DNA of 64,000 nucleotides from a bacterium (lineage in GTDB: Bacteria > Orphanbacterota > Orphanbacteria > Orphanbacterales > Orphanbacteraceae). The position numbers and the translations under genes were made by a program. Positions within the stretch are counted from its first letter, which is position 1; each line of letters starts with the position of its first letter. The stretch covers positions 14,139 through 78,138 of the forward strand of contig JALGYY010000047.1 of the NCBI GenBank assembly GCA_025782575.1. Reading direction: 5' to 3'. This document shows, one piece after another, positions 13,082 through 63,665 of the stretch. Under the pieces are notes generated by a model, which saw nothing but the letters and a program-made list of their open reading frames with translations, searched no databases and was not told the DNA's origin.

Positions 13082-13082
13082 G

Positions 13083-16574: not shown

Positions 16575-18181
16575 ACCGCGAATCCATCAAACTCCTCATC
16601 CGGCGATTCGTACTGGCCACATCATTCCCGCCGTTTCTCGGCGTCTATCGATGGGGGTATCGCCTCGTGACAGGGTTGGCGGTCCGTATTTTCAGGCGCT
16701 ATCCGGGAGTTCGGGCCGTATATCTGCGCCGGGGAGGGGCGAAGGGAGCCATAACGCCACTCGTAAGTGATATCGATTTCGCGGTCATCATCGATTCCCT
16801 CACCGAAGACGAAAGTCGTGAGCTTCACGATTCCTACGACCGACTCGCTCGGGTAACCACTCTGCTCGACCGATCGCTCGAGATATACAGCGAAGCACAA
16901 ATGAAGCATCTGTATGAAACGAACGACTATTTTCGCTACCGGTTTGTGGAAGGAAAAGAGACCTGGAAGCTCCTTTATGGGCAGAACGTACTGGAGTGCC
17001 TTCCTGAATGCTCGATGGAGGAGTTGCATGGAGGGTTCGTCAATGAGACCAAAGTCTGGTGGTCTCTTTTTGCGTGGAGATTCTATCACGATAGGAAATA
17101 CAACGACGAAGGGGTGACGAGAAACAGCTTTTGCTTCAAAACAGTGAGCGAGATATTGAAGATGAACCTCGCTCTGAATCACGGCCGGCTGACTTTCGAT
17201 CGAAGTGAGGCGATGCGCGATGCCCTGCCTGACCTTGACCAGGAAGACAGCAGGCTGGTAGAGGACCTTCTCACAATTGAACGGTCGGGCTTTCGGAAGA
17301 ATGACTCCGGGATTCTGGAACGAACCAATCGGTTTCTCATTCGTTACCTGGATCGTTTTTTCAGAGTGCTTCAGGATCACCCCATAGCCGCGTCACGAAA
17401 CGGTGTCACCCAGGTTGTAAGCGGTGCGGGAGACCCGATCTTTCAGTCAAGTGCTGAAAAGGATCATCTGGACCGACTTCGATCTTTCATTCGCGATCGG
17501 TGGGGGGTGAAGGGTTCTGCCACACACGTATCTTCCGGGGCGTTCTTCAATCTGGATGAAATACTCTTTCTGGTCGAAATCGATGCCCGAACGCCGCCGA
17601 GTGTTACAGAGATCGCCGCGCTGAATCGATATCACCAATCGATGGGCGGGGAGCTTTGTTCGAGAGTGAAAATATTTCTACTCACATCGGGTGCTGCGTT
17701 TCAAATCGATACCGAGGATCTTTCTCAAAGCTGGCAGTCCGTTCTGATCCCCGCCTCCAATCCGGACGTATTCGAAATCATTCACAGTCATGCGAGCGAG
17801 GCGGGCATGGGGATGACATCAAGCCGCCGTGTGGTGGCCTGGTCATCACTGGTAGAGCACTTCTTCCGGGAAGAAAAATCGCTCTTCTACGAGCTGATCG
17901 ATCAGCCGTCGATTTACAAGCTCGGAGGACGGGATTTCCTGCGGATCTTCTGGAAGACCGCCCAGCTCGTCGTTCTGAACCGGAGCGCGGCGAGAGGAAC
18001 TGTTGTCTATGCGTTGGCTCCGGACCAGGTGGCGGCGGCACTTGCCGATGAGGGGATCCCCCTTCCGGATCGGCTGGGACGCCTGCAAACCGCCTACGCG
18101 ATCGAGCTGAAGGGGGAGGACGGGGGAGTGGCCCCGCTCGTACCCGAAGCGCTGCGCTGGCTCAAAGAGATTGAATCATGA
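16571..18181 (+). CDS. Nucleotidyltransferase-domain (Pol-beta superfamily) protein, 536 aa, function unknown
   Basis: GGAKGAITPLVSDIDFAVIID matches the minimal NTase motif G[GS]-x9-13-D-x-D. The remaining ~400 aa have no recognised domain. TTG start overlaps the upstream stop (TTGA). Confidence 0.5.
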   Translation: MNRESIKLLIRRFVLATSFPPFLGVYRWGYRLVTGLAVRIFRRYPGVRAVYLRRGGAKGAITPLVSDIDFAVIIDSLTEDESRELHDSYDRLARVTTLLDRSLEIYSEAQMKHLYETNDYFRYRFVEGKETWKLLYGQNVLECLPECSMEELHGGFVNETKVWWSLFAWRFYHDRKYNDEGVTRNSFCFKTVSEILKMNLALNHGRLTFDRSEAMRDALPDLDQEDSRLVEDLLTIERSGFRKNDSGILERTNRFLIRYLDRFFRVLQDHPIAASRNGVTQVVSGAGDPIFQSSAEKDHLDRLRSFIRDRWGVKGSATHVSSGAFFNLDEILFLVEIDARTPPSVTEIAALNRYHQSMGGELCSRVKIFLLTSGAAFQIDTEDLSQSWQSVLIPASNPDVFEIIHSHASEAGMGMTSSRRVVAWSSLVEHFFREEKSLFYELIDQPSIYKLGGRDFLRIFWKTAQLVVLNRSAARGTVVYALAPDQVAAALADEGIPLPDRLGRLQTAYAIELKGEDGGVAPLVPEALRWLKEIES

Positions 18182-18636
18182 GCAATCAGGCGCTTACCAC
18201 ATCTGTGGTCATCGTAACGAAAGACCGGCCTGAGCTTCTGGCGAAGGTACTCGAATCCCTCGTCCCGCAGACCTTGATGCCTGACGAAGTGCTCGTGGTT
18301 GACAACAACTCCAGCCTGTCCTACGGGGATGTAATCGAGCGTTTTGCCCCGAAGCTTCCTCTGCGGATCGTCGTCGAAATGAAGCCGGGGATTCCCCACG
18401 CCAGGAATCGGGGCATTCGAGAAGCGAGTGGGGAGATCATCCTGTTTACAGATGACGATTGTGTGGCGGAAAGAGAATGGGTGGAGAACATGGTAGCGCC
18501 GTTCTTGATGAATCCTCATATCGGCGCGGTGGGAGGCGAGATCCTTTCGACCGAGCGTACAGGAAGCCTGGTTGAGGAATTCTGTGCGGCGGAGACCCTG
18601 ATGCGAATGGGCCGGCCGGAGGAAGGCGGAGCATGA
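18178..18636 (+). CDS. Glycosyltransferase family 2, N-terminal portion (frameshift-split; continues in 18633..19340)
   Basis: VVIVTKDRPELL, LVVDNNSS, FTDDDCV (DxD) and GAVGG form the GT-A N-half. The ORF terminates at TGA 18634-18636, where a GT2 should continue. Confidence 0.6.
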   Translation: MSNQALTTSVVIVTKDRPELLAKVLESLVPQTLMPDEVLVVDNNSSLSYGDVIERFAPKLPLRIVVEMKPGIPHARNRGIREASGEIILFTDDDCVAEREWVENMVAPFLMNPHIGAVGGEILSTERTGSLVEEFCAAETLMRMGRPEEGGA

Positions 18637-22355: not shown

Positions 22356-22946
22356 ATGAGAGGGTCAATAGTCATGAGAGTCGGGAAAATGCAGGTCGCT
22401 GCCATCGCTATCTTTGCGCTTCTCTTCGCGTTCGGGTGCGGTGACGACGAGTCCCCTGTCGGTGCGAACGGCAACGGTATTCCCACCGGAAACCAGGCGC
22501 CGGATTTCGCACTGGCCGATGTCAACTCCTCGTCGGCAACCAATGGTGAAATGGTCTCGCCGCGGGATTACGAAGGAAAAGTATCGGCATGGTACTTCGG
22601 TCGCTCCACCTGAGGTTACTGTCTTAGCCAGTTTGGCTATCTCAACCAGATCCAATCTGAGATCAACGAATCAAAGACGGGCCTCGAAATCCACATCCTG
22701 GGTCTGAACGGCGCAGGCCACGAAGGGGGAAACGGAACAGTCCCCGATTTCGGAACTCTTCCCTGGCTTCAGGATACGGACGAGCAACATGTATGGGAGA
22801 CCTGGTCGGTGACGTACAGAGATGTCGTCATTCTTGATTCTGATAACGAGCCGTTTGCCGTATACAATTTAACGGAAAACGATCTTTCCAGGTCGGAGTA
22901 TCGCGATGCTCTTCGGGCGCTCCTTGATCAGGCAGCCGGAGATTGA
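22356..22946 (+). CDS. TlpA/redoxin-like thiol-disulfide oxidoreductase lipoprotein, predicted selenoprotein (in-frame UGA 22611-22613 read as Sec; UxxC)
   Basis: The track ORF 22356..22613 ends ...KVSAWYFGRST*. The same frame continues with no stop for 110 codons to TGA 22944-22946, giving ...YFGRST-U-GYCLSQFGYL... plus a thioredoxin-fold C-half (VPDFGTLPWLQDTDEQHVWETWSVTYRDVVILDSDNEPFAVYNL). The UGA occupies the first Cys of the CxxC redox motif. Lipoprotein signal ALLFAFGC. Confidence 0.6.
22614..22650 (+). promoter_or_regulatory. Candidate bacterial SECIS hairpin immediately 3' of the UGA
   Basis: GGUU-acugucu-UAGCCA-guu-UGGCUA-ucuc-AACC. Lower 4-bp stem, internal loop, and a 6-bp upper stem starting 12 nt after UGA, with a small G/U-containing apical loop. 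Topology is consistent with bSECIS. Confidence 0.4.
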
Positions 22947-22968
22947 GCATTCGGGAGAAGACTCAGAA

Positions 22969-24723
22969 ATGCCCCGTATGAGTACCGCTTGGCGCCGCTC
23001 TATCGTTTTGCTCTCCATTCTTTCAGTTGCCGCTCTCTTCGGAGGGTGCGGATCTGACGATGACGGTGTGGTCGGTCCCGGAGGATCCGAACTCGCCCTT
23101 TTCATCAACGAGTTGCTCGCGAACAATTCCACAGGACTTGCTGATCCCGACTTTGGTGAGAAGAGCGATTGGATCGAGATTTATAACGGCGAAGGTGAAG
23201 CGGTCGATATGGGCGGATTCGGGTTGACGGATGATCGTTCCCAACCATTTAAGTGGGTTTTTCCTGCCGGCACGATGATCCCGGCCGGCGGGTTCCTGAT
23301 CGTATGGGCAGATGACGGCGACACGACGGCGATCGCCCATCACGCCAACTTCAAGCTGAGTTCCGGCGGAGAAAAAGCAGTGCTGTTCGATGCCGATGGT
23401 AACGTCGTGGATCTCGTTGAATTCGGCGCGCAGGTGGAAGACATCTCCTACGGACGAACGGCGGACGGCGGAGGCCAGTTCGGCACGTTCACCGTTCCCA
23501 CGCCGGGAGTGACGAATGGTGCCGCCGTGACACCGGCCGCGATTCATATCAACGAGTTCCTAGCGGACAATGAAAACGGAATCGTCGATCCGGATTTCGG
23601 TGAAACGGGTGACTGGGTGGAGCTCTATAACAGTGGAGACCTGTCGGCCAATATCGGGGGTTGGACGATGACGGATGATCTCGAGGATCCGGGGCAGTGG
23701 ACCTTTCCGCCGGGAACTTCAATCGACGGCGGGGGCTTCCTTCTCGTATGGGCCGACAAAAACGACACGTCGGCCGTAGCGCATCACACGAATTTCAAGC
23801 TGAGCTCCGGGGGCGAATCGATCGGACTTTTCGATGGGGCAGGGAAAGTGGTGGACAGCCTCACCTACGGCGAGCAGCAACCAGATGTCTCGTACGGCCG
23901 GATCGAGGATGGCGAATCGGAGTTTGCGGGTTTCGGAAGCCCGACGCCCGGGGAAAGTAACGAGAATTCCACGCCGGACGCGCCCCCCGTCATCCATGCG
24001 GTGTGGATCTCGCCGGCATTCCCGACCGCAGAAGATAGCGTCAGGATCACGGCGATCGTTACGGACGATATGTCACTCGGTCTGGTCAGGCTTTTTCACA
24101 ATATCGGCGGCCAGACCGTGGTCGGAATGACCGAGACGGGGGCCGATACATTCTTTGTAGTGTTACCGCCCCAACCATCCGAAACAGTGGTCGAATACTA
24201 TATGGAGGCGACGGACGAAGCCCTGCAGGTTACGAGCGCCCCATCAGACGCTCCAGCATCTCTGTTCAGTTATCTGGTTGCTTCCGCACCTCCGATGGTG
24301 GTGATCAACGAGTTTCTCGCGAGCAACGACAGCACCAATATCGATCCCGATTTCGCGGACTACGGAGACTGGCTGGAGCTATACAACGCCGGCGCATCTC
24401 CGGTCGATCTCGGCGGGTGGTATCTGACTGATGACCTTGCTGATCCGACATTATGGGAGATTCCTTCAAGTACTTCGCTCGCCGTCGGTGCTCATCTGCT
24501 GATCTGGGCGGATGACGGGGACACCACGGGCATCGCTCTTCACACCAATTTCAAGTTGAAGAGTGGTGGGGAGGAGATCGGGCTCTTCACGGCCGGCCAG
24601 GTACCCATGGATACGCTCACCTACGGTGTCCAGGCGACTGACGTATCGTACGGACGATCAACCGATGGCGGTTCGGAGTGGGAGTTCTTCGACATACCGA
24701 CGCCGGGCGAATCGAACGAATAG
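22969..24723 (+). CDS. Lipoprotein with four tandem lamin-tail-domain (LTD) repeats
   Basis: Lipobox AALFGGC. Four ~130-aa repeats of INEfLA-N...DPDFGE-GDW-ElYN.G...-GGw-LTDD...W-fP-gT-I-GGFL-vWADdgD...A-H-NFKL-S-GGE-igLF...G..VD..tYG. This is the LTD (PF00932) signature. Confidence 0.8.
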   Translation: MPRMSTAWRRSIVLLSILSVAALFGGCGSDDDGVVGPGGSELALFINELLANNSTGLADPDFGEKSDWIEIYNGEGEAVDMGGFGLTDDRSQPFKWVFPAGTMIPAGGFLIVWADDGDTTAIAHHANFKLSSGGEKAVLFDADGNVVDLVEFGAQVEDISYGRTADGGGQFGTFTVPTPGVTNGAAVTPAAIHINEFLADNENGIVDPDFGETGDWVELYNSGDLSANIGGWTMTDDLEDPGQWTFPPGTSIDGGGFLLVWADKNDTSAVAHHTNFKLSSGGESIGLFDGAGKVVDSLTYGEQQPDVSYGRIEDGESEFAGFGSPTPGESNENSTPDAPPVIHAVWISPAFPTAEDSVRITAIVTDDMSLGLVRLFHNIGGQTVVGMTETGADTFFVVLPPQPSETVVEYYMEATDEALQVTSAPSDAPASLFSYLVASAPPMVVINEFLASNDSTNIDPDFADYGDWLELYNAGASPVDLGGWYLTDDLADPTLWEIPSSTSLAVGAHLLIWADDGDTTGIALHTNFKLKSGGEEIGLFTAGQVPMDTLTYGVQATDVSYGRSTDGGSEWEFFDIPTPGESNE

Positions 24724-24733
24724 TCCGGGATAG

Positions 24734-24796
24734 CCCCCACCCGACCGTGTGAGTTTTCCTCCCGGGAGGAAGACTCACACAGTCGGGTGGTTGGGG
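24734..24796. terminator. Long imperfect palindrome / bidirectional intrinsic terminator between convergent genes
   Basis: cccccacccgaccgtgtgagttttcctccc|gggaggaagactcacacagtcgggtggttgggg forms a ~26-bp stem with 2 mismatches and a self-complementary centre (ttcctcccgggaggaa). It sits between the + LTD gene and the - ptrB gene. Confidence 0.5.
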
Positions 24797-24797
24797 C

Positions 24798-26915
24798 TCA
24801 ATTCAATAGTCCGGCCAGGTCGAGAATGAAGGCGTATTCGAACGCTGTCTCCTCGTGGCGGGCGAATCGTCCCATCGTGCCGTGATGCCCCGCTTCCATG
24901 TTTGTTTTCAAAAGAATCCGGTTGTCGCTTGTGTTGTAAGCTCTGAGCTTCGCCACCCATTTGGCCGGCTCCCAGTACTGAACCTGACTGTCATGCAGTC
25001 CGGTTGTGACAAGCAGGTTGGGGTAATCACGGGCTGAAACATTATCGTAGGGCGAATAGGACAGCATGTAGTCGTAGTCTTCTTTTATGTTGGGGTTGCC
25101 CCACTCGTCGTATTCGGATGTGGTGAGGGGTATGGATGAATCGAACATAGTGGTAACCACATCCACAAACGGCATGGATGCGATGGCGCCATGAAAGAGG
25201 TCGGGCCGATCGTTGATGACCACACCGACCAGCAGTCCTCCCGCGCTTCCGCCTACAGCGTATAGGCGATCGCTACTGGTATAACCCTCTGCAATGAGAT
25301 GCTCCGCGCAATCGATGAAATCCCTGAACGTGTTCTTCTTCGCATGTTGCCGTCCATCTTCGTACCAGGCCCGGCCCAGTTCCGCACCTCCGCGGACGTG
25401 GGCGATGGCGAACGTCACACCACGATCGATCAGGCTGAGACGGTACGACCGGAAAGAGGCGGTCATGTTGCCGCCGTACGAGCCATAAGCGTAGAGATAA
25501 AGCGGGCTCGAGCCGTCTCTCTTCATTCCCTTCCTGTAGACGATGGAGATCGGGACGGCCGTTCCGTCTCGTGCCTCCGCCCAGAGCCGTTCGGTAACGT
25601 AATTATCCCGATCAAAACCGCCGAGTATCTCTGTCTGCTTCAGAAGTTCTTTCGACCGTGTGGTCATGTCGTAGCGAAAGACCGACTCAGGTGTATTGAG
25701 CGATGTGTAGCCGATTCGGAGAAGCTCCGTATCCTGCCCCGGGTTTTCATCAAACCAGGCGTTGTACGCCGGCTCGCCGAAATTGATGAAGTGATGTTCA
25801 CCACCATCCAGCGGAACGATTCGCATTCGAATCAACCCCTCTTTCCACTCCTTGATTACCAGATGTTTTTCGAAAGCAAGCATGTCTTCCAGGAGAACAT
25901 CTTCGTAGTGAGGAATGACCTCCTTCCAGTTCTCTTCACCCGTTCGACCGACCGGCGTTTCCATAATGCGAAAATTCTTCGCATCTCGATTGGAGAGAAT
26001 GAAGAAGCGATCTCCCAGATGCTCGATTGAGTATTCATGGCCCATTTCGCGCGTCTGAAAGATGCGGAACTCGCCGAACGGATCGTCGGCGTCGAGATAA
26101 CGGATTTCCGTGCTGAGCGTATGTCCCAAATGAATGATGATGTACCTCTCCGATCGGGTCTTACCGATCGATGCCCAGAACGTATCATCCTTCTCCTCGT
26201 AGACGAGGACGTCCGGCGTCTCGCTTCCCACTTCATGCCGCCAGATTTGATACCACCGTAAGGTCGAGGGCTCCTGCCTGCTGTAAAAGACATGCCGGTT
26301 GTCATTCGACCAGACGACCTGGCCTGTCACATCGGGAATAAGATCGGGAAGAGACTCGCCGGTGACGAGATCCTTGAAGTGAATGGTGTAGAATCGGCGC
26401 CCCTTGGTATCGATACCATAGGCGGCTATGTGACCATCCGGACTGACCGAAGCGCTGCGGGCTCGAAAAAAGTGGTGTCCTTCGGCGAGCGCGTTCTCGT
26501 CGATTACGATCTGTTCGGGCGCGTCGAGAGATCCCTTCTTGCGGCACTGAAACGCAAACTCCAGATCTTGCTCGAAACGTTCGTAGTAGAAGTATTCATT
26601 GTCCAAATAAGGAACAGAGGAGTCGTCCTTCTTGTACCGTTCTTTGATCTCCTCGAAGATCACCTTCTGCATGGCGGTCGTGTGGCTCATCACATTTTCT
26701 GCATACTCGTTCTCCCGCGTGAGGTAATCGATCACCTCTTCACTTTCTCTCTCCTTCAGCCAGTAGTAGTTGTCCGTTCGAGTTCCCCCGTGCTCCTGAA
26801 ACTCGTGCGGAATAATCTCGGCGCGAGGCGGGCTTCCCTCGCTCGCCACCCCGCGGCGAACAAATACCATTCCGATAATAAGGGAGACAGCAATCAGCAG
26901 CAGAACCATACGCAT
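24798..26915 (-). CDS. ptrB: Oligopeptidase B / prolyl oligopeptidase family S9A serine peptidase
   Basis: 705 aa with N-terminal signal/TM. Beta-propeller N-domain and catalytic GGSAGGLLVG (GxSxGG), with downstream D and H. Strong overall similarity to protease II. Confidence 0.85.
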   Translation of the reverse strand: MRMVLLLIAVSLIIGMVFVRRGVASEGSPPRAEIIPHEFQEHGGTRTDNYYWLKERESEEVIDYLTRENEYAENVMSHTTAMQKVIFEEIKERYKKDDSSVPYLDNEYFYYERFEQDLEFAFQCRKKGSLDAPEQIVIDENALAEGHHFFRARSASVSPDGHIAAYGIDTKGRRFYTIHFKDLVTGESLPDLIPDVTGQVVWSNDNRHVFYSRQEPSTLRWYQIWRHEVGSETPDVLVYEEKDDTFWASIGKTRSERYIIIHLGHTLSTEIRYLDADDPFGEFRIFQTREMGHEYSIEHLGDRFFILSNRDAKNFRIMETPVGRTGEENWKEVIPHYEDVLLEDMLAFEKHLVIKEWKEGLIRMRIVPLDGGEHHFINFGEPAYNAWFDENPGQDTELLRIGYTSLNTPESVFRYDMTTRSKELLKQTEILGGFDRDNYVTERLWAEARDGTAVPISIVYRKGMKRDGSSPLYLYAYGSYGGNMTASFRSYRLSLIDRGVTFAIAHVRGGAELGRAWYEDGRQHAKKNTFRDFIDCAEHLIAEGYTSSDRLYAVGGSAGGLLVGVVINDRPDLFHGAIASMPFVDVVTTMFDSSIPLTTSEYDEWGNPNIKEDYDYMLSYSPYDNVSARDYPNLLVTTGLHDSQVQYWEPAKWVAKLRAYNTSDNRILLKTNMEAGHHGTMGRFARHEETAFEYAFILDLAGLLN

Positions 26916-29265: not shown

Positions 29266-29589
29266 TCAGACAAGGCCCGGCCGGAATACGATAGAAAAGC
29301 GGCCCGGTCGACCCATTCAGCGAAGTAATCCCCACACCAGCAAAAGCCCCGTCAGCCTCAATGCCGAAGTGCGTGGTTCCCGCTATGTGCCAACCGAGCC
29401 ACCGGTCTCATCTGCAATGCAAGTGAGATGCCCGACCGACATGGATTGCCTCTCTTAATTAAATGTTTCTTTCATATGATGTTATGGCGATTGGTGCGGG
29501 GTGGCCGCGGGGAGTCCTTGCAGTGCCTGGGTCGAATCGGACCAATTTGACGGGCGACCGAAATCAAAACGCACCAGTAGATAAACAGA

Positions 29590-29621
29590 GGCTCCCCCGG
29601 ACGACCCGGAGGAGCCTGCAT
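29590..29621. terminator. Candidate bidirectional intrinsic terminator
   Basis: aggctcccccgg-acgac-ccggaggagcct forms an 11-bp stem (1 mismatch) with a 5-nt loop, 24 nt 3' of the minus-strand OmpA-family gene. T-containing flanks on both strands. Confidence 0.4.
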
Positions 29622-30539: not shown

Positions 30540-31406
30540 GTGCATCTCGTAGCCTGTCCGGCCTGTCATCTTCAATTCGACGTCTCCGGGCATGACCAGG
30601 AGGAGATCAAGTGTCGGTGCGGGGCAACCATCCCTGTCGAACACCACGACCCGATAGATATCGAAATCCGGAGGTGCGGATCGTGCGGCGCGTCGGTCGA
30701 GCCCGATTCCGAGCAGTGCGGGTACTGCCGTTCCACGGTTAAGCGGGACGCCGACCACCTGAGCCTCATCTGTCCCGAGTGTTATGGCCGGAACGCGGAA
30801 CGGTCCCGATTCTGTACCGGATGTGGAGTCCGCTTCGCGCCCCAGTCGCTGGAGAGCATAGAGGACGACCTCACTTGCCCCTGTTGCGAAGAGAAATTGC
30901 TCGCGAGATCGGTCGCCGGATTCCCGGTGCATGAGTGTGGAAAGTGTCACGGCCTCTGGGCGCCGGAAGAGAGTTTCGATGCGCTTGTGGGGCGAGCCGT
31001 TTCCGCGCAGGAAGTCTCGGCGGGCGATGGCCTCGGCAAGGGAGGAAGCGGGAAAAAGAAGACGCCGTTCCAGTCCAGGATCGTCTACAGGTCGTGCCCC
31101 GTTTGCAGCGGAATGATGCAGCGCAAGAATTTCGGAATACGGTCGGGCGTGATCGTCGACTGGTGCGGCAAGCACGGGACATGGCTCGACGCGGATGAAC
31201 TCGAAGACATTGCCGCTTTCATCGCTCGTGGCGGACTTGGCAGAATGGGGCGGGACGCCGAGTTCGATCGTGTTCGAGAGACAATGAAAGTAGAGCGATT
31301 ACAGATGAAACGGAGAGCGGAAAAGAAGAGATCAGGAGCCGGGTTTGTCACCGAGGACGACCAATCGTTTTCGCTCCTTGAACTGTTAAAGGGTGTATTC
31401 GACTAG
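30540..31406 (+). CDS. Multi-zinc-ribbon protein (TFIIB-type zf, YdjG-like)
   Basis: Several CxxC...CxxC pairs: CPACH...CRCG, CGSCG...CGYC, CPECYG...CTGCG, CPCCE...CGKCHGLWAPEE, CPVCSG...CGKHGTWLDADELEDI. The last two match the zf-TFIIB pattern C-P-x-C...C..C-G-x-W-[FL]-D-x-x-E-L. Confidence 0.55.
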   Translation: MHLVACPACHLQFDVSGHDQEEIKCRCGATIPVEHHDPIDIEIRRCGSCGASVEPDSEQCGYCRSTVKRDADHLSLICPECYGRNAERSRFCTGCGVRFAPQSLESIEDDLTCPCCEEKLLARSVAGFPVHECGKCHGLWAPEESFDALVGRAVSAQEVSAGDGLGKGGSGKKKTPFQSRIVYRSCPVCSGMMQRKNFGIRSGVIVDWCGKHGTWLDADELEDIAAFIARGGLGRMGRDAEFDRVRETMKVERLQMKRRAEKKRSGAGFVTEDDQSFSLLELLKGVFD

Positions 31407-31442
31407 ACGGGCCGACCCGGCGAGGAGCTGCCGGCATAAGAG

Positions 31443-32546
31443 ATGGAGGAATCGATGAGTTTCGTGGACAAGCTGCGTGGAGAGTTAATTGACATTGTCG
31501 AATGGGTAGATGACAGCAGGCACACGCTCGTCTGGCGCTTCCCCCGCTATCACAATCAGATCAAGAACGGTGCCCGGCTGATCGTGCGCCCCGGGCAGAT
31601 GGCTATCTTCGTGCACAACGGCAAAGTGGCCGACGTGTTCGAGCCGGGCACCCATAAGCTCACAACGAGCAATCTCCCGGTGCTCAGCACACTTCAGGGA
31701 TGGGCCCACGGGTTCGACAGCCCGTTTCGATCAGAGATCTATTTCATTGCCAGCCGGCAGGTCACCGAGCTCAAGTGGGGAACACCCAATCCGGTGATCA
31801 TGCGTGATCCCGATTTCGGTGCCATCCGTGTGCGGGCTTTCGGCACTTATACGTTGAAGGCCCACGATCCGCGGGCGCTCCTGAACGAATTGGTCGGCAC
31901 GGATTCGGAGTTCGAAGCCGAAGAGATCAGCGTGCACATGCGGTCGATCATCAACAATTGTTTTGCCGATGTAGTGGCGAATTCGGGAATCTCGATTATC
32001 GACCTCGCTTCGCGATACGGAGACCTCTCGGAGGAGCTACGCGTAGCGGTCATGCAGAAAGTGGACGATGAATACGGCCTGCATATTCCCCAGCTCTGGA
32101 TCGTGAACATATCCCTTCCTGAAGAAGTCGAAAAGGCGATCGACTCCAAGTCGAGTATGGGGGTTCTCGGCGATCTCGCGCAGTATCAGCAGTACCAGCT
32201 CGGTCTCTCGATGCCCGTTGCGGCGGAGAACCCGGCGGGTGGGCTGGCCGGTGCCGGAGTCGGTCTCGGGATGGGGATGGCCTACACAAGGAACCTGTTC
32301 GATGGATCAGGTGGTGGAGTGGCCTCGCCTCCAGCGCCTCCCGGTGCGCGTGCTGTCTGGCACGTCGCCGAAAACGGTCAATCCACTGGGCCCTGGTCCC
32401 AGACTCAGATTGCCGAATTGATCAGTTCGGGACGAATAGGCGCAAAGACTCTCGTCTGGACAACCGGCATGGCAGCCTGGCTACCGGCCGAGCAGACATC
32501 ACAGTTCGCCACCTACTTCAACCCGAGCCCGCCGCCATTGCCATAG
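31443..32546 (+). CDS. SPFH/band-7 domain protein (YdjI-like) with C-terminal DUF4339/GYF-like domain
   Basis: N-terminal SPFH-like region, Gly-rich linker, and a C-terminal WHVAENGQSTGPWSQTQIAELISSGRIGAKTLVWTTGMAAWLPAE (DUF4339-type). The stop TAG 32544-32546 is immediately followed by the palindromic element. Confidence 0.65.
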   Translation: MEESMSFVDKLRGELIDIVEWVDDSRHTLVWRFPRYHNQIKNGARLIVRPGQMAIFVHNGKVADVFEPGTHKLTTSNLPVLSTLQGWAHGFDSPFRSEIYFIASRQVTELKWGTPNPVIMRDPDFGAIRVRAFGTYTLKAHDPRALLNELVGTDSEFEAEEISVHMRSIINNCFADVVANSGISIIDLASRYGDLSEELRVAVMQKVDDEYGLHIPQLWIVNISLPEEVEKAIDSKSSMGVLGDLAQYQQYQLGLSMPVAAENPAGGLAGAGVGLGMGMAYTRNLFDGSGGGVASPPAPPGARAVWHVAENGQSTGPWSQTQIAELISSGRIGAKTLVWTTGMAAWLPAEQTSQFATYFNPSPPPLP

Positions 32547-32797
32547 GCGCCGCTCCTCACCGAGGCGCCGCTCCTCACCGAGGCGAACGGTCCTTCTCCC
32601 GGGGGCCGTCTCCGGGGCTCCTGATCGTCGCCCCTCGCCTACTCGCTCGGCCGGCCCGTAGAATCTTCGCACGAAAATGGGCAGGGTCTTGACTAACCCT
32701 GCCCATTTTCAATGCTCTCATTCAACGGGGCCGCCGGCCTCGTCTCGTTAATCCCCCCGGGAGAAGGACCGTTCGCCTCGGTGAGGAGCGGCGCCTA
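32547..32797. repeat. MITE-like palindromic element: 41-nt terminal inverted repeats flanking ~150 bp with a central hairpin
   Basis: Left arm 32547-32605 is gcgccgctcctcaccgaggc[gccgctcctcaccgaggc]gaacggtccttctcccggggg, including an 18-nt tandem duplication. Right arm 32754-32794 is its exact reverse complement. Each arm directly abuts a TAG stop codon (32544-46 on +, 32795-97 on -). Confidence 0.6.
32673..32710. terminator. Bidirectional intrinsic terminator inside the palindromic element
   Basis: gaaaatgggcaggg-tcttgactaa-ccctgcccattttc is a perfect 14-bp stem. An A-tract lies on the 5' side and a T-tract on the 3' side, on both strands. Confidence 0.55.
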
Positions 32798-35272
32798 GCG
32801 GAGCAGTACTATCTTCTGTGTGACAGTTTCGCCGCCTGTTTCGAGGCGTAGAAAGTAGATCCCCGCCGCCACACGACCGTTACCGGAACCCAGGCCGTTC
32901 CATGTAGCCGTATGGCGTCCGGCGGACTGAACGCCGGTTACGAGGCGCGAAACGAGCCGGCCTCGTATGTCGTATACGACAAGACTGACATCGGACGTGG
33001 CGGGCAGATTGTAGACGACGGTCGACTGCGACCGGACCGGGTTCGGACGGATGCTTTCGAAGCGGAGCGGACCGCCACCCAGAGGGGGCGCGTCAGGCGT
33101 GCCGGTCGAGGTCCCCTGCTTCAGCACCAGGAGGCCCATCTGGGGAATGGTGAGAAGAGTAGATTGAGTGAAACCATCGGCCGATATCGCATCGACCGTA
33201 ATCGAAGGATTGGTCAGCCCGTTCCCTTCATATTGCGTCGCCTGGCTGTTAATGATCTCTGTCCAGGTGCCTCCGGCCGGGAGGCCGACGCGATAGTTAT
33301 TCCAGTTTCCGTTGTTGAAATTCGCGATGATGACGAAGACGTTGCCGGCGTTGTCCCAGCGTTGCCACGCGATCACATTCCCGCTCTCGTTCTGATGAAA
33401 TACCTGATGAGATGCGTCTGCCCGGAGCGCGGGGTTCGTGGTGCGCCACGAGATCATTTCTTTGTAGTATTGGAAGATCCCCGCGTAGGTCGTCTTCTTT
33501 GACCAGTCGATCCTGTTCGCCGGGTCGGTGCCGAAGTCAGTATCCTCGAGCCATTCGGATCCCATGAGCATGGCCGGCACACCGGGCGAAAACATCACGA
33601 TGCCCTGAGCCAGCTTCGATCGCCCCTTCGCCCACATATCGTCGTGGGGAAAAGTAGTATCGATTGTCTTAACCAGTCGCTGTCCGCCGCTCGACGGCCA
33701 TGCCTCGTCATGAAGTTCCACATAGTTCGTAACCTTGACGCCGCTGAGATCTACACCGCCGCCGTTGATAATGTTACGAATCTTCCAGATTTCCGGGTCG
33801 CCCAGCGCGGCGTCGAAGATCTCCTCGCGAAGACGATCCGTGAAGTTGTCGTAGTATTGGGAATCGAACCCGGCGCCTCCGGTACCGGTTGACCGCGTGA
33901 CCCAGCTGTCATCGGGTAACTGCTCTGCGATCGAAACCTTGTTTGCCCATCGCCAGTCGATCAGATCGTTGAACTCCTGCATGAGTGACCAACCTGACGC
34001 GTCCTGAGGCGGGATATTCATGAAATCGGTCGCATCCATTCGGAACCCGTCGACATGGTATTCCTCGAGCCAGTGAAGGGCACTGTGCAGAAAATAGTCG
34101 CGCACATTCTGGTTGTCGAAATCTGCCTGATCACCCCAGGGGGTACCCACGGCCGGATTGTCGAAGTAGATCTGGTTGCCGTCGTAGAACCAGAGGAAGT
34201 TGTCGGTCGATGAAAAGTGATTCCAGAGAATATCAAGTAACACCGCGATCCCGTGATTGTGAAACGAATCGATCATCGCCTTGCACTCGTCCGGTGTCCC
34301 GTAAACCCAATCGGGGGCGAACTCGGTGACCGGGTTATACCCGGCGGAGAGATCGCCCGCAAACTCGGTGATCGGGTTGAGCATCACAGCGTTGACACCG
34401 AGATCGGCAAGCTGATAAACGCGATTCGCGACGTCGAGATAACCGGACGGGTGAGCGACTGTTCCTTGTGGATCATTCCGCCCTGCAAACGATCCGACGT
34501 GAAGCTGGTAAATCACCATTTCTTCAAGGTCGGGCGTGTCGAAATCCGCGAGTGCCCATGAATACGCAAAGGGATCCTGGATGATCGAATTCTGATTGGC
34601 GGCAGGGTTCAGCCCGCGGGCACGAGGGTCCGGTTTCCAGAGATTGTTGTCGAAATAATACTTGTATTCATCGAGAGGTGACGCGCCCGTCACATGCGCA
34701 ATGTAGTGTTCCCCCACTTTGAATAAGGGATTCGTTGTCGCCCACGCGTTGAACTTTCCCCGCACGCGGGCGGACGTAGGGTTCGGCGCCCATACTTTGA
34801 AAACGACGCCGCTGCTGGTCGGCGTCGCACCGAGCGGCGCATGGTCGAGAGTGAGGAAGTTGACCACATAGCCGCTGTCTAGCGGGACGGCATCAGACAT
34901 TCCGTTGATGCTGTTGTAGTCGGTATCGGTTCCGTCGGTCAGTTCGAAGTAATACTTTGCGATTCCCGATCCGGTCAGCGGCACCTGGGCCGACCAGATG
35001 TCGTAAGGGCCCCGGCCCCCTGCGAGTGATCCTGAAAGAGTGTCGAGAAGGCCGCCGTCATCTACGAAAACCTGCAGAGCCGTGATGTCATTGGCCCACG
35101 TCTGGATTCGCACTTCGAACGATTCGGACGAAATCGGTGCGAGTGGCCTCCGGTCCTGCCAGGGAATGTGCGAGACACCGTTCCACTCGACATTGTTGTC
35201 TGGAGCGGCTGCAAACAGGGTCGTGGCACCCACACAGGCGGCCAGACAGAACAGAAAGGACTTTCGTAGCAT
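32795..35272 (-). CDS. GH13 alpha-amylase-family enzyme with N-terminal CBM48-like domain and C-terminal T9SS sorting domain
   Basis: Signal peptide. GVVFKVWAPNPTSARVRGKFNAW (CBM48/E-set), HVDGFRMDATDFM (GH13 region II), NYVELHDE. C-terminal ...AAGIYFLRLETGGETVTQKIVLLR is a Por/T9SS CTD. Confidence 0.8.
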   Translation of the reverse strand: MLRKSFLFCLAACVGATTLFAAAPDNNVEWNGVSHIPWQDRRPLAPISSESFEVRIQTWANDITALQVFVDDGGLLDTLSGSLAGGRGPYDIWSAQVPLTGSGIAKYYFELTDGTDTDYNSINGMSDAVPLDSGYVVNFLTLDHAPLGATPTSSGVVFKVWAPNPTSARVRGKFNAWATTNPLFKVGEHYIAHVTGASPLDEYKYYFDNNLWKPDPRARGLNPAANQNSIIQDPFAYSWALADFDTPDLEEMVIYQLHVGSFAGRNDPQGTVAHPSGYLDVANRVYQLADLGVNAVMLNPITEFAGDLSAGYNPVTEFAPDWVYGTPDECKAMIDSFHNHGIAVLLDILWNHFSSTDNFLWFYDGNQIYFDNPAVGTPWGDQADFDNQNVRDYFLHSALHWLEEYHVDGFRMDATDFMNIPPQDASGWSLMQEFNDLIDWRWANKVSIAEQLPDDSWVTRSTGTGGAGFDSQYYDNFTDRLREEIFDAALGDPEIWKIRNIINGGGVDLSGVKVTNYVELHDEAWPSSGGQRLVKTIDTTFPHDDMWAKGRSKLAQGIVMFSPGVPAMLMGSEWLEDTDFGTDPANRIDWSKKTTYAGIFQYYKEMISWRTTNPALRADASHQVFHQNESGNVIAWQRWDNAGNVFVIIANFNNGNWNNYRVGLPAGGTWTEIINSQATQYEGNGLTNPSITVDAISADGFTQSTLLTIPQMGLLVLKQGTSTGTPDAPPLGGGPLRFESIRPNPVRSQSTVVYNLPATSDVSLVVYDIRGRLVSRLVTGVQSAGRHTATWNGLGSGNGRVAAGIYFLRLETGGETVTQKIVLLR

Positions 35273-44111: not shown

Positions 44112-44215
44112 GGACACAGCATAGCACAGAAAAACAGAAAGGCCCCGCATGCTCGTGACATGCGGGACCCTTGTTGTCTTGTATTGTTGCGGCAACCGTC
44201 GCGCCGAAAACGATC

Positions 44216-46216
44216 CTAGCGGAAGTGCACGACCCGTCCTTTTCGTTCATCGTTTCCGACGGCGACACGCCAGAAGTAGACACCAGACCGGACTTCAGCG
44301 CCACTGTCATCGCGGCCGTCCCATGTGGTTTCATAGGCGCCGGGTGACTTCGATTCGTTCACGAGGTTTCGAACGCGCCGGCCGGCTACATTGTAAATCG
44401 CCACTTCCACCGATGCGCTCGACACGCCGCTGACGGAGTAGGCGAGACGGGTGCTCTCACGGAACGGGTTGGGTGCGGCGCCGAACAGCGTTGATATCGG
44501 CCGACCCGCGGTTCCCTCAGTAATGCCGGTGGCAGGGCCCGTTACTGAATAGCCTCTCTCCGTGAACCGGTCAATCATTGCAGTGATATCCGAACCGGAG
44601 TAATTCATATTGATAGCCGCCTGAAGCATAGCCTGCGCGGCGTCTTCCTGGTTCGTCGATGAGTTCGTCATTGCGAGCCCTTCCAGGCAGGCTTTGTCGG
44701 TCAGCTCGCGGCCGATGTCATTCCAGATTCTCATGAGACCGGTCGACCAGATCTGGCCGTCCGTATGAATCTGGTTGATCAGGCCACCCGGATAAATAGC
44801 CCCGTAGTTTGTCTTACGCCCGCCCCAGAACGGATTGTGCCCGTCCCAGCTGAAGACCCACTGGTATTCCGGCGTGCCGGGCACCCACTGGCCGAGGCTC
44901 CGGCTGTAGGAAGCGGCCATGTAGTCGCCGAAGCCTTCGCTCAGCCCGTTCACCTGAGAGAGGCTCCCCCCTGTCAACCAGTCGTGAATGCCGTGGCCCA
45001 GTTCGTGGATCACCACATCGGCATCCTCGGAATCATCGACCCCTCCTTCGCCGAACGAGATTCGGCCGGATCCGCTCAAATAGTACGAGTTGTCGGAGCC
45101 GCTCAGCCCATGCGGATCGAACTGGACGCCGCCGCCGTACTGGTAGGGAGAAAGGGTCAGCCCAAGTGTAGTGTTGATGTAGCGCATGATGTTATCGATA
45201 TGCCAGTAACAGAGCACTGCCTCAAACCCGTTGTCCTGCCGATTGAAAAGAAAGTCAGGGCCGGCCTGCGCGAAAAGCCCGCGGAAAGGATTCTCGAAAT
45301 CGATGACCTCCGCGTAGGGCCCCTCGAGCTTGTACTGCCCGCCTGAAAACAGTATGTCGGGGAGATTCTTCAGAAACCGCTCGGCATCGAGCTGGGCATT
45401 TGTGGAGTCGCTGTTATCCGCGTAGTTTCCGCCGTAGGAAACCTGGGCGCTTGATAGCGGATCGGGATCCCAAAGATAGCCCGTTCCGGTTGCGTAAAAC
45501 GCCTTATCCTCCGCACGAAAAATCTCTCCCGTATGGGCGTCAAAAAGTATTTCCCACTCGCCGATCGGTCCGTCAACCGCGTGGAGAGTCATCTTCCACG
45601 CTAGTCGGGGAGCATCACCGTTCGGATAGACGACCAGCTCGGTTTTTTCGTAAGAGAGTGCACCTTGAATTTCCAGGTATTCCAGCGCGGCGGTGCGTGC
45701 CACGGCAGCGGAAAGGGAAGGGTGGGTGGAAGGAAGAAGAGCGGCGTCTACCGATTCCACGCCGTTCATCACGAAGACCACTGAATTGTCATGGTCTATC
45801 GTAATGGCGACATCGGCGCCGTAAACCGGGACGCCGCCTGCGTGTTGCACGAATCGCACGACCGTGCCTGCCTGACCGGCGCGTGTCATCCTGTGGACCA
45901 TCTCGTCGAGTGCGCGCTCGCTGATGTGCAGGGTTTCCCTCGCCTCGCGTAGATATTGACGTGCCATCTCGCGGGGTGATTCCCCGGTTACCTCGTGATC
46001 GAGGTTGTAGAGCGTGATCGGTCTGCCCGTCTCAGTGTTTACTCTCGCGTTTCCGTCCAGGTGAGTCGGTGCCATCCTCTCGGACAGGGGGATTCGCTCG
46101 AGCATGTCCATCTTGAGGGACGCTGTTTTCGGTCGTTTTGCCTCGGATTCTCCAGGCAATAAGAGAGCTGCGGCGAACAGGGCGGCCGCGCACATCAGGA
46201 TGCGACGTTTCATCAT
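44216..46216 (-). CDS. Secreted zinc metallopeptidase (HExxH; M4/M36-like) with C-terminal T9SS sorting domain
   Basis: Signal peptide MMKRRILMCAAALFAAALLLPGESEA. VVIHELGHGIHD (HExxH) and downstream EGFGDY (third zinc ligand, Glu). C-terminal ...SGVYFWRVAVGNDERKGRVVHFR is a T9SS CTD. Confidence 0.7.
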   Translation of the reverse strand: MMKRRILMCAAALFAAALLLPGESEAKRPKTASLKMDMLERIPLSERMAPTHLDGNARVNTETGRPITLYNLDHEVTGESPREMARQYLREARETLHISERALDEMVHRMTRAGQAGTVVRFVQHAGGVPVYGADVAITIDHDNSVVFVMNGVESVDAALLPSTHPSLSAAVARTAALEYLEIQGALSYEKTELVVYPNGDAPRLAWKMTLHAVDGPIGEWEILFDAHTGEIFRAEDKAFYATGTGYLWDPDPLSSAQVSYGGNYADNSDSTNAQLDAERFLKNLPDILFSGGQYKLEGPYAEVIDFENPFRGLFAQAGPDFLFNRQDNGFEAVLCYWHIDNIMRYINTTLGLTLSPYQYGGGVQFDPHGLSGSDNSYYLSGSGRISFGEGGVDDSEDADVVIHELGHGIHDWLTGGSLSQVNGLSEGFGDYMAASYSRSLGQWVPGTPEYQWVFSWDGHNPFWGGRKTNYGAIYPGGLINQIHTDGQIWSTGLMRIWNDIGRELTDKACLEGLAMTNSSTNQEDAAQAMLQAAINMNYSGSDITAMIDRFTERGYSVTGPATGITEGTAGRPISTLFGAAPNPFRESTRLAYSVSGVSSASVEVAIYNVAGRRVRNLVNESKSPGAYETTWDGRDDSGAEVRSGVYFWRVAVGNDERKGRVVHFR

Positions 46217-46383
46217 TAGAATATTCCCTCGGGAGCGGGTTTTCGAAATCAGGCAGAACCGGTCTGGTACTGGGAGGCCCTCATTATAGAGGAAAAGGGC
46301 GCGGAAATCCACAAGAAGAAAAACGGGACAAATAGAGATCGCCGGTCTGCGGAACGGGCGGGCCGTCTGGTCCTACTGATTTT

Positions 46384-48137: not shown

Positions 48138-49943
48138 ATGCGTCTCCGTTTGAAGAGTTCAGCTGGACACCTGACGACAATTGCTCTCGGATTTCTGTTC
48201 CTGCTTGCCTGGGGCGGTTCGGCCGCGGCCGGCACCGATGCTTGGCGGGACAAGATCCAGGCGGGCCTCCTGGAAGAGGCTACGACTCTGGAGACCGAGT
48301 TTCTCGTCTTTCTCGGCGAGCAGGCTGATCTTTCGGCGGCGGCCCTGATGGGGACGAAATTAGAGAAAGGTCGCTACGTTTTCGAAACGCTGAGCCGTAC
48401 GGCCGATCTTACACAGGCCTCTCTTCTGAATGTACTCGAGGGGGAAGGGGTGCCACATCGACCCTACTGGGTGGCCAATATGGTCTGGGTCAAAGGGGAC
48501 GCTACGCTCGTAGAACGAATGGCGGAGCGAGCGGATGTGCGGGGCGTTTACGCGAATCCGATCGTCCAGTTTGAACAGCCTGTGGCGATCGAGGCGGGCG
48601 CACCGAAGGTGGCGGGAATCGAATGGAACATCTCCCAGGTGAACGGCCCGAACGTCTGGGCCATGGGGAACACCGGACAGGGGACGGTGGTCGGGGGAAT
48701 CGACACGGGCTATGACTGGGATCACCCGGCCGTTATCGATCAGTATCGTGGTTGGGACGGTGTCTCGGCCGATCATAATTACAATTGGCACGACGCGATT
48801 CACTCGGGGAGCGGCGGGTCGTGCGGGCTTGACTCGGCTGTTCCTTGCGATGACCACGGACATGGTACTCACACGATGGGGACCATGGTGGGAGATGACG
48901 GCGGCAGCAATCAGATCGGCCTCGCTCCGGGCGCGAAGTGGGTCGGTTGCCGTTGCATGGATGTGGGCTTCGGTACGCCTGCGCGCTACACGGAGTGTCT
49001 CGAGTGGATGATCGCCCCCACCGATCTGAACGACATGTTCCCCGACCCGTCGAAAGCACCCGACGTGATCAATAATTCGTGGAGCTGCCCCCCTAGCGAG
49101 GGGTGCACCGATCCACTCGTCATGCAGACAGTGGTTGAGAATGTGAAGGCGGCGGGAATCGTCGTTGTAGTGAGTGCGGGGAATTCGGGATCGGCTTGCA
49201 GCACGGTCGAAGATCCGATCGCTATTTATGAAGCATCGTTTTCAGTCGGTGCGACTGACGACAATGACGACATTGCAGGCTTCAGCAGCCGCGGTCCTGT
49301 CACTTCGGACGGCAGCAATCGTATGAAACCTCAGGTGAGCGCGCCGGGAGTGATCGTCCGTTCCTGCGTTCCGGGTACCGGTTATACCAGCCTGAGCGGG
49401 ACGAGCATGGCAGGGCCACACGTGGCCGCGGCGGCTGCGCTTGTGATCGCCGCGAATCCCGTTCTCCAGGGGCAGGTCGACAATGTCGAAAGCATTCTCG
49501 AGCAGACGGCGCTTGCCCGTACCACTACCCAGACTTGTGGCGGTGTTCCGGGAACGAGCATTCCGAATAACACATACGGCTGGGGGCGGATTGACGCGCT
49601 GGCCGCTGTAAATGAAGCAATCAGCCAGGCGGTTTCGGTGGATGGCGCAAACGCCGTTCCCGCCCGCTATTCTCTCTCCGCAGCCATGCCGAATCCCTTC
49701 AACCCGCGCACTACCATTCGATTCGACATCCCGGAGCGTAGCGATGTTTCGATCCGTGTGTTTGATGTGGTCGGCCGTGAAGTGCGCCCCCTGATCAGCA
49801 GAACGAACCTCGAGGCAGGTCGGCACTCCGTCGATTGGAACGGTCTCGACAGTCGTGGCGACGACGTACCGTCAGGCATCTACTTCTATCGCATGAACGC
49901 CGGCGAATTCCAGTCGACCGGCCGGATGGTTCTGGTTCGGTGA
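48138..49943 (+). CDS. Subtilisin-like serine peptidase (S8) with C-terminal T9SS sorting domain
   Basis: Catalytic triad motifs VVGGIDTGYDWDHPA (D), HGTHTMGTMVG (H), GTSMAGPHVAAAAAL (S). C-terminal ...SGIYFYRMNAGEFQSTGRMVLVR is a T9SS CTD. Confidence 0.85.
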   Translation: MRLRLKSSAGHLTTIALGFLFLLAWGGSAAAGTDAWRDKIQAGLLEEATTLETEFLVFLGEQADLSAAALMGTKLEKGRYVFETLSRTADLTQASLLNVLEGEGVPHRPYWVANMVWVKGDATLVERMAERADVRGVYANPIVQFEQPVAIEAGAPKVAGIEWNISQVNGPNVWAMGNTGQGTVVGGIDTGYDWDHPAVIDQYRGWDGVSADHNYNWHDAIHSGSGGSCGLDSAVPCDDHGHGTHTMGTMVGDDGGSNQIGLAPGAKWVGCRCMDVGFGTPARYTECLEWMIAPTDLNDMFPDPSKAPDVINNSWSCPPSEGCTDPLVMQTVVENVKAAGIVVVVSAGNSGSACSTVEDPIAIYEASFSVGATDDNDDIAGFSSRGPVTSDGSNRMKPQVSAPGVIVRSCVPGTGYTSLSGTSMAGPHVAAAAALVIAANPVLQGQVDNVESILEQTALARTTTQTCGGVPGTSIPNNTYGWGRIDALAAVNEAISQAVSVDGANAVPARYSLSAAMPNPFNPRTTIRFDIPERSDVSIRVFDVVGREVRPLISRTNLEAGRHSVDWNGLDSRGDDVPSGIYFYRMNAGEFQSTGRMVLVR

Positions 49944-63563: not shown

Positions 63564-63665
63564 GGTAGGCGAATGGTAACCGCTCCGCCCCGGGCTGTCC
63601 AGAGCCTGCGAAGGGGAGACAGTCCCGGGATTTCGATTTTTCATTTTGGCGGTCGGGTACCCGGC

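Follow-up and report, generated by a model that had tools for sequence, protein, structure and literature searches.

A 254-bp palindromic unit with a candidate two-way terminator between convergent SPFH and GH13 genes of an uncultured bacterium

Architecture of the palindromic unit

In the 64-kb window (the whole stretch of DNA analysed here) two genes converge on a spacer of 254 bp. The product of the plus-strand gene matched the Pfam families Band_7_1 (E=1.3e-95) and GYF_2 (E=4.8e-16). The minus-strand gene encodes a secreted protein with CBM48, the GH13 catalytic domain, a C-terminal domain and a FlgD_ig/Por_Secre_tail sorting domain. The spacer between them is a real, self-contained palindromic module with a central hairpin of the terminator type, and the locus is composed as follows.

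31443..32546, plus strand: SPFH/Band_7_1 and GYF_2 gene, ending ...PPPLP-TAG; its stop forms the left arm's outermost 3 nt
32544..32605: left arm, 62 nt, consisting of TAG and the 41-nt arm interrupted by one extra 18-nt copy; reproduced by Logan contig L002 up to 32592
32549..32584: tandem duplication, 2 x 18 nt (GCCGCTCCTCACCGAGGC); microhomology read directly from the sequence
32606..32672: spacer of 67 nt between the left arm and the hairpin, without significant complementarity to its right-hand counterpart
32673..32710: perfect hairpin at the centre, with a 15-bp stem and a loop of 8 nt; candidate bidirectional intrinsic terminator of both genes
32711..32753: right interior spacer, 43 nt
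32754..32797: right arm, 44 nt, consisting of the 41-nt arm and CTA (the GH13 stop, minus strand); reproduced by Logan contig L001 from 32767 on
32795..35272, minus strand: secreted GH13 alpha-amylase-family gene, ending ...KIVLLR-TAG

A preliminary description of this DNA had proposed a 41-nt sequence that abuts one stop codon and returns as its exact reverse complement at the other, and this was borne out. The repeat GCGCCGCTCCTCACCGAGGCGAACGGTCCTTCTCCCGGGGG was located at 32565-32605 (plus strand) and 32754-32794 (minus strand), with exactly two occurrences in the window, and the 41-mer was found in 0 of 100 shuffled sequences. The left arm region begins at 32547, directly after the SPFH TAG (32544-32546). 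The last base of the right arm, 32794, stands directly before the CTA (32795-32797) that is the GH13 TAG stop on the minus strand. The 41 nt are perfect, and the repeat is in fact 3 nt longer on each side: with both TAG stops counted and the left-arm duplication set aside, the repeat finder returned a perfect inverted repeat of 44 nt (TAGGCGCC... / ...GGCGCCTA).

After its TAG the left arm reads GC, two copies of GCCGCTCCTCACCGAGGC, and then GAACGGTCCTTCTCCCGGGGG up to 32605. The tandem duplication of the 18-nt unit, which had also been described before, was confirmed at 32549-32566 and 32567-32584; the unit is single in the right arm and occurs three times in the window overall. Read from the sequence of an unduplicated arm, the 18-nt unit is bracketed by a 5-nt direct repeat (AGGCG...AGGCG, 18 nt apart).

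The interior between the arms is 148 nt long and is divided unequally by the central hairpin, with 67 nt to its left and 43 nt to its right. Outside the hairpin the palindromy of the interior was not significant, 241 of 1000 shuffles having aligned as well. The DNA of the whole unit was predicted to fold with -183 kcal/mol (z = -14), and for each arm alone no structure beyond that of shuffles was detected (z = +0.67 and +1.37). According to the ORF list the 254-bp unit contains no ORF of at least 80 aa, and no long ORF starts inside it. No Rfam family was found at its gathering score in the unit; three sub-threshold matches to miRNA families on the hairpin were regarded as noise. The overall anatomy, with long terminal inverted repeats, about 250 bp of non-coding DNA, an internal hairpin that is predicted to be able to terminate in both directions and a slippage duplication, was thus as had been described.

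The central hairpin as a candidate terminator

The hairpin arms (32673-32687 and 32696-32710) pair perfectly over 15 bp, and the outer five pairs are GAAAA/TTTTC. The G+C-rich core of 10 bp (TGGGCAGGGT/ACCCTGCCCA) is bracketed by AAAA and TTTT. A perfect hairpin had been expected here and is present, with a stem of 15 bp instead of 14, and with the A4 and T4 tracts forming part of the stem instead of flanking it. DNA folding gave -19.2 kcal/mol, with z = -7.6 on the plus and z = -7.9 on the minus strand. When the stem was limited to the 10-bp G+C core, the tails were TTTTCAAT on the plus and TTTTCGTG on the minus strand, each with 5 T in 8, and only four T are consecutive. A strict terminator scan of positions 32000-33300 flagged no terminator; the hairpin was missed because its T-run pairs with the A-run and was therefore counted into the stem. 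Across the window no enrichment of canonical terminator-like sites was observed. Judged by its sequence, the hairpin could plausibly terminate both convergent transcripts and act as a two-way terminator.

Relatives carry bidirectional terminators of the A-tract/hairpin/T-tract type between the GH13 orthologue and its convergent neighbour (relative L010, 6510-6555; relative L013, 5530-5590). The two most convincing intrinsic terminators of the window lie elsewhere, at 29589-29617 and 44138-44172, both on the minus strand, with long G+C stems and the common tail CTGTTT(A/T)T. The same CTGTTTAT tail was found after the terminator downstream of the GH13 orthologue in L013 (5575-5590), and this may be a tail typical of the lineage.

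Flanking genes, relatives and synteny

In the collections searched the closest protein identities were 66-72%, with 72% for the SPFH protein and 66-67% for the GH13 protein. Some of the GH13 homologues are named Eisenbacteria, Krumholzibacteriales or Gemmatimonadota, and these matches point to an uncultured host lineage of that general group. All GH13 orthologues end with ...LR followed by TAG at the position of the present gene, and the 72%-identical SPFH relative also ends with TAG. Both stops are therefore ancestral and were not brought in by the element.

In the relative with the 72%-identical SPFH protein the gene order is DEAD helicase, OmpA, zinc-ribbon protein, SPFH, a variable gene, HisKA_3 kinase, GerE regulator and glutamine synthetase, and the same outer genes flank the present locus. 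A double-zinc-ribbon gene directly precedes the SPFH and GYF_2 gene both here (30540-32546) and in that relative (L003-L009), so that the two form a conserved pair. The SPFH and GH13 genes are not neighbours in the nearest relatives. There, SPFH is followed after 56 nt by a convergent PAS/HATPase gene, without a repeat, and GH13 is found between a DinB gene and a FlgD_ig/C25-peptidase pair. The gene corresponding to GH13 (32795-35272) stands beside the DinB gene in three relatives (L010, L013 and L014), with the FlgD_ig/C25-peptidase pair next in two; here it sits between SPFH and an otherwise syntenic histidine-kinase/response-regulator block. Gene order indicates that the locus is rearranged in this lineage, the GH13 gene having apparently moved relative to other lineages.

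Downstream of SPFH and of GH13 the relatives have unrelated sequence with plain hairpin terminators, and inverted-repeat scans of their loci revealed no comparable element. Other convergent gene pairs of the window are 9, 32 or 46 nt apart, or overlap by 14 nt. A different palindrome was seen at 24737-24790, in the intergenic segment 24724-24797 between a Lamin-tail-domain protein gene (22906-24723, plus strand) and a prolyl oligopeptidase gene (24798-26915, minus strand). Its 29-nt arms are 93% complementary and are nested in a further GGGATAGCCCC/GGGGCT stem; it folds with -56 kcal/mol, no T-run follows, and beyond CCCGGG it has nothing in common with the 254-bp unit.

The window also encodes many large secreted enzymes (1861-5190, 32795-35272, 44216-46312, 48138-49943 and 60783-63644). 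FlgD_ig-type C-terminal domains are present on the GH13 protein, an M36-like peptidase, an S8 subtilase and a BNR protein, suggesting a set of cargo proteins for type IX-like secretion; a pullulanase is present without such a domain. At 9367-18636 a co-directional polysaccharide-synthesis cluster was found, with glycosyltransferases of families 2 and 4, a Polysacc_synt flippase and several ORFs without a Pfam match.

Reconstruction of a possible empty site

Three candidate empty sites were rebuilt, namely a TA duplication, TAGGCGCCTA and CTAG. With the TA duplication the GH13 protein would be ten residues longer than every orthologue, and the TA model is therefore disfavoured. Excision to TAGGCGCCTA, which stands for any duplication centred on the palindrome, leaves proteins that end ...PPPLP* and ...KIVLLR*, as the orthologues do. 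Excision to CTAG (right junction CTAG, left junction ATAG) likewise leaves both proteins ending as in the relatives, and requires one synonymous change in the last proline codon of SPFH, from CCC to CCA. The element-free junction would then read ...CC(C/A)TAGCGG... or ...TAGGCGCCTAGCGG.... Because the junction itself is palindromic (TAGGCGCC...GGCGCCTA), a target-site duplication, whether TA, CG, GCGC, GGCGCC or (A/C)TAG, is indistinguishable from the repeat ends.

The TAGGCGCCTA and CTAG models imply that the two genes once abutted or shared their stops. A convergent junction as tight as this is plausible for the ancestor, given the gaps of 9-46 nt and the 14-nt overlap elsewhere in the window. 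A junction of abutting stops is the only position at which an insertion spares both genes, which would explain why the arms touch both stops. The stop-to-stop geometry fits a local template switch equally well, given the TAG/CTA microhomology and selection against copying into the coding regions.

Search for further copies and mobility genes

The preliminary description had interpreted the unit as a miniature transposable element with inverted repeats (MITE) or a repeated terminator cassette. When the 41-mer, the 21-mer and the 18-mer were searched in the window with up to 3 mismatches, only the known arms were returned. When the complete element, its arm and its interior were compared by blastn-short with the masked window (63.7 kb) and with the relatives' loci L003-L014, nothing longer than 15 nt was found (E >= 0.28). 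An exact 24-mer of the arm had 0 matches in the GTDB representative genomes (596 Gb), and an exact 20-mer had 0 matches in the JGI metagenomes and 0 in IMG/VR, the source genome not being among any of these. Searches by blastn against plasmid and phage collections returned nothing.

We also searched the GTDB genomes with a pattern of the termini, GGCGCCGCTCC-N195-225-GGAGCGGCGCC. It gave 67 matches in unrelated, high-GC genomes, which we regard as chance: most of the repeats stop at 11-17 nt, and the two that reach 22-25 nt are of unrelated sequence. Their arm similarity was at most 27/44, with the 11 forced positions included. The terminal 21-mer GGCGCCGCTCCTCACCGAGGC was present in 14 unrelated JGI metagenome contigs (L082-L095), where no similarity extended past the 21-mer and the rest of the arm was found in none; these matches, too, are due to chance. 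In one reading frame GGCGCCGCTCCTCACCGAGGC spells APLLTEA, and the composition of the arm (76% G+C) is therefore coding-like.

Among about 54 ORFs of the window Pfam scans detected no transposase, recombinase, integrase or invertase family. A parent insertion sequence with matching ends was not found within the window, and no other sequence searched carries these ends. The architecture thus agrees with a MITE or a terminator cassette, and nothing found supports the repetition or mobility that such an element was proposed to have: there is one copy in the 64-kb window and none in the public collections of genomes, metagenomes, viruses, plasmids and phages, which do not include the source genome. 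Unrelated sequence with plain hairpin terminators lies 3' of the same genes in relatives, in which these genes are non-adjacent and 66-72% identical at the protein level. Taken from the window and from relatives at this distance, the single copy and the unrelated sequence lean against a MITE.

Origin and possible working of the unit

Our best reading, which we put forward tentatively, is that of a low-copy or solitary MITE-like insert that now forms both 3' UTRs and a shared bidirectional terminator. It draws on arms absent from shuffled sequence, the fold of z = -14, the terminal repeats of a small non-coding unit, the empty sites that preserve the stops and the rearranged locus. Against it stand the lack of a second copy and of a cognate enzyme in the window, the unbroken contig of the metagenome-assembled genome (MAG), the long arms, the ambiguous target duplication and the weak terminator. 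Perfect terminal repeats of 44 bp are long for bacterial MITEs. Some bacterial MITE families are known with as few as one copy per genome (PMC10969869).

Starting from the observed anatomy, its non-randomness, the flanking genes and the ancestral stop positions, the MITE-like insert could have arisen and worked as follows, with termination, duplex formation and mobility as inferred steps. A non-autonomous element with terminal inverted repeats and its own terminator would have inserted where the two stops met, and the 18-nt tandem copy in the left arm would have been added later by replication slippage between the AGGCG repeats. Polymerase arriving from either gene would transcribe the same 41 nt immediately after UAG, since the arms are inverted and both mRNAs carry the sequence in the same sense. 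It would then reach the 15-bp hairpin and UUUUC, and terminate. Only read-through transcripts would contain the two arms, which may pair over about 44 bp and leave an 18-nt bulge. Such a duplex could block further read-through or feed a double-strand-specific RNase, and antisense transcription into the opposing gene would be reduced. By analogy with known elements, a role of the duplex as a block or as an RNase III-type substrate is plausible.

A more far-reaching version, which we consider unlikely, makes the unit a mobile cassette with a bidirectional terminator, belonging to an uncultured relative of Eisenbacteria and Krumholzibacteriota. Its target would be the abutting or shared TAG stops of convergent genes (CTAG or TAGGCGCCTA), it would give both genes an identical 41-nt start of the 3' UTR, and its 44-bp read-through duplex would be cut by a double-strand RNase, making it a portable insulator against convergent transcription.

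The unit could also be of local origin and never have been mobile, a serious possibility that we rank second. An older, imperfect palindromic terminator region would have been perfected by one template switch (inverted duplication or quasi-palindrome correction), in which the sequence 3' of one stop was copied as its reverse complement 3' of the other; TAG/CTA would have provided the microhomology for the switch. The present function would be the same as for the MITE-like insert. That the element is unique in everything searched and that no transposase lies in the window agree with such an origin. The 100% identity of the arms fits a single recent copying event, and the repeat ends exactly at the two stops, where selection would tolerate copying no further. 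Raw material of this kind exists in L013, where a terminator 3' of the GH13 orthologue lies between 41-nt arms with 71% complementarity, and another convergent pair of the window has the palindrome with 29-nt arms at 24737-24790. Less easily reconciled with a template switch are the distance of 148 nt between the arms and the hairpin spacers, which are unequal (67 versus 43 nt) and not mutually complementary, so that there is no sign of an older extended palindrome here. The switch would also have had to start exactly at a stop codon. Template-switch tracts are usually shorter than 44 nt. The origin thus stays between two close options, a low-copy MITE-like insertion, which we tentatively prefer, and a local inverted duplication.

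If mobile, the unit would be the first small non-autonomous element described for this poorly known uncultured group, and a clean case of a transposable unit from which tightly packed convergent genes acquire a complete two-way terminator. If of local origin, it would show at a single locus how template switching can surround a terminator with long perfect inverted repeats. Under either origin the practical consequence is small.

Orientation of the interior and assembly support

Inverted repeats around a short segment are the defining geometry of an inverton, in which the 148-bp interior would be turned around between the 44-bp repeats by a site-specific recombinase, so that an internal signal changes strand. 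A k-mer assembler cannot fix the orientation of such an interior; the Logan contigs stop in the arms, and the orientation given here is that of the MAG assembly only. We nevertheless consider an inverton very unlikely. No promoter-like site was seen in or near the interior, and both genes point into the segment, so a flipped promoter could drive only antisense RNA. The central hairpin is symmetric, so that flipping changes little, and no recombinase or invertase family is present among the ORFs of the 64-kb window.

Exact-protein look-ups led to two Logan contigs of run SRR32233994, which were 100% identical to the window over 11,138 and 5,506 nt, that is with 0 mismatches over 16.6 kb. Between the contigs (SRR32233994_48630 and _48710) there is a gap: their sequence ends at 32592 and resumes at 32767, on each side 13 nt before the inner end of the arm is reached. 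Both gene-to-arm junctions are reproduced in them, as is the 18-nt duplication. The break at 32592/32767 arises because a k=31 assembler meets the same 31-mers entered from both sides, which is the signature of an inverted repeat. Since the MAG itself was probably derived from this run, the contigs count as a second assembly, not as a second sample; the interior 32593-32766 is backed by the MAG assembly only. The 188-kb MAG contig passes straight through the element, a mild hint that the element is no repeat of high copy number. Calculated from its length, contig 48710 has its other end near 59920, within a Ser/Thr kinase gene in which no repeat is visible. The inverted repeat accounts for the interruption of k-mer assemblies at this position and marks where two ordinary genes have their 3' ends.

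That the inverted repeat, or the join across it, was made by the metagenome assembler is even less probable than an inverton. The source is a metagenome-assembled genome, and its interior segment 32593-32766 occurs in one assembly only. However, both junctions and the duplication were obtained with 0 mismatches by Logan (k=31) as well, a second assembler whose input was probably the same run. The HisKA_3 kinase, GerE regulator and glutamine synthetase on the right also follow SPFH in the relative, and the large-scale join is therefore syntenic. In a graph in which both flanks enter one arm and both ends of the interior leave it, an inverted repeat is the only sensible resolution.

Least likely of all is a shared post-stop signal, in which the identical 41 nt after UAG would be a cis-element (a read-through or recoding signal, or an RNA or protein binding site) and the inverted repeat its by-product; in both mRNAs UAG is indeed followed at once by the same sequence, with sense and reading frame in agreement, and the 18-nt duplication is a multiple of three, but the arm alone is no more structured than shuffles, in contrast to hairpins of the SECIS or PYLIS type, TAG serves here as an ordinary stop (16 of the 50 ORFs in the window), the C-terminal sorting domain of GH13 reaches the last residues with the same end as in the orthologues, and no other gene of the window has the 41-nt sequence downstream. 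Two further candidates were rejected. Against an integron attC site, the ends lack the R''/R' core sites (RYYYAAC...GTTRRRY) and the window contains no integrase; against a CRISPR or tandem array, there is only one duplication of 2 x 18 nt.

Comparison with known element families

SPRITE elements are about 105 nt long and multi-copy in a Gram-positive pathogen. The present element has 254 nt, with 44-bp outer arms that are separate from the terminator hairpin; it has no sequence in common with SPRITE and is known from one copy only.

A REPIN consists of two inverted REPs that form one long hairpin. Each REP unit is itself a small hairpin, whereas the present arms are not. REPs reach tens to hundreds of copies and are accompanied by a RAYT transposase, whereas one copy was found here and no RAYT (TnpA_REP) gene is present in the window. 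Assignment to REP/REPIN was rejected on the folding of the arms, which is no better than that of shuffles (z = +0.67 and +1.37). REP, BIME and REPIN sequences are G+C-rich extragenic palindromic DNA that is often located between convergent genes (PMC3184786), and in being palindromic extragenic DNA between convergent genes the present unit resembles them.

With ordinary bidirectional intrinsic terminators the unit shares a hairpin bracketed by A and T runs, like those that relatives carry downstream of their GH13 orthologues. Unlike the present unit, these terminators are without the extra perfect 44-bp repeat that stands 43-67 nt outside the hairpin and reaches both stops.

Closest in architecture are the Correia elements (CREE, NEMIS) of Neisseria, an IS630-type MITE, which are likewise short and non-coding with terminal inverted repeats. 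Correia elements are 100-155 bp long and have 26-bp repeats, TA duplications, IHF sites and hundreds of copies. The present element differs from them in its 44-bp arms, its one known copy and a TA duplication that is disfavoured, since it would lengthen GH13, although TA can be read at both of its ends. Correia transcripts fold into a long hairpin, and they are cleaved by RNase III at the terminal inverted repeats (PMC10969869; PMC2649163).

The unit has the terminal inverted repeats of a MITE and its small size without an internal transposase gene (about 50-500 bp); the target duplication is ambiguous, further copies and a parent IS were not found, and membership among the MITEs is accordingly not established. 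The unit adds one more case to the familiar intergenic palindromic elements, and is not a new kind of system.
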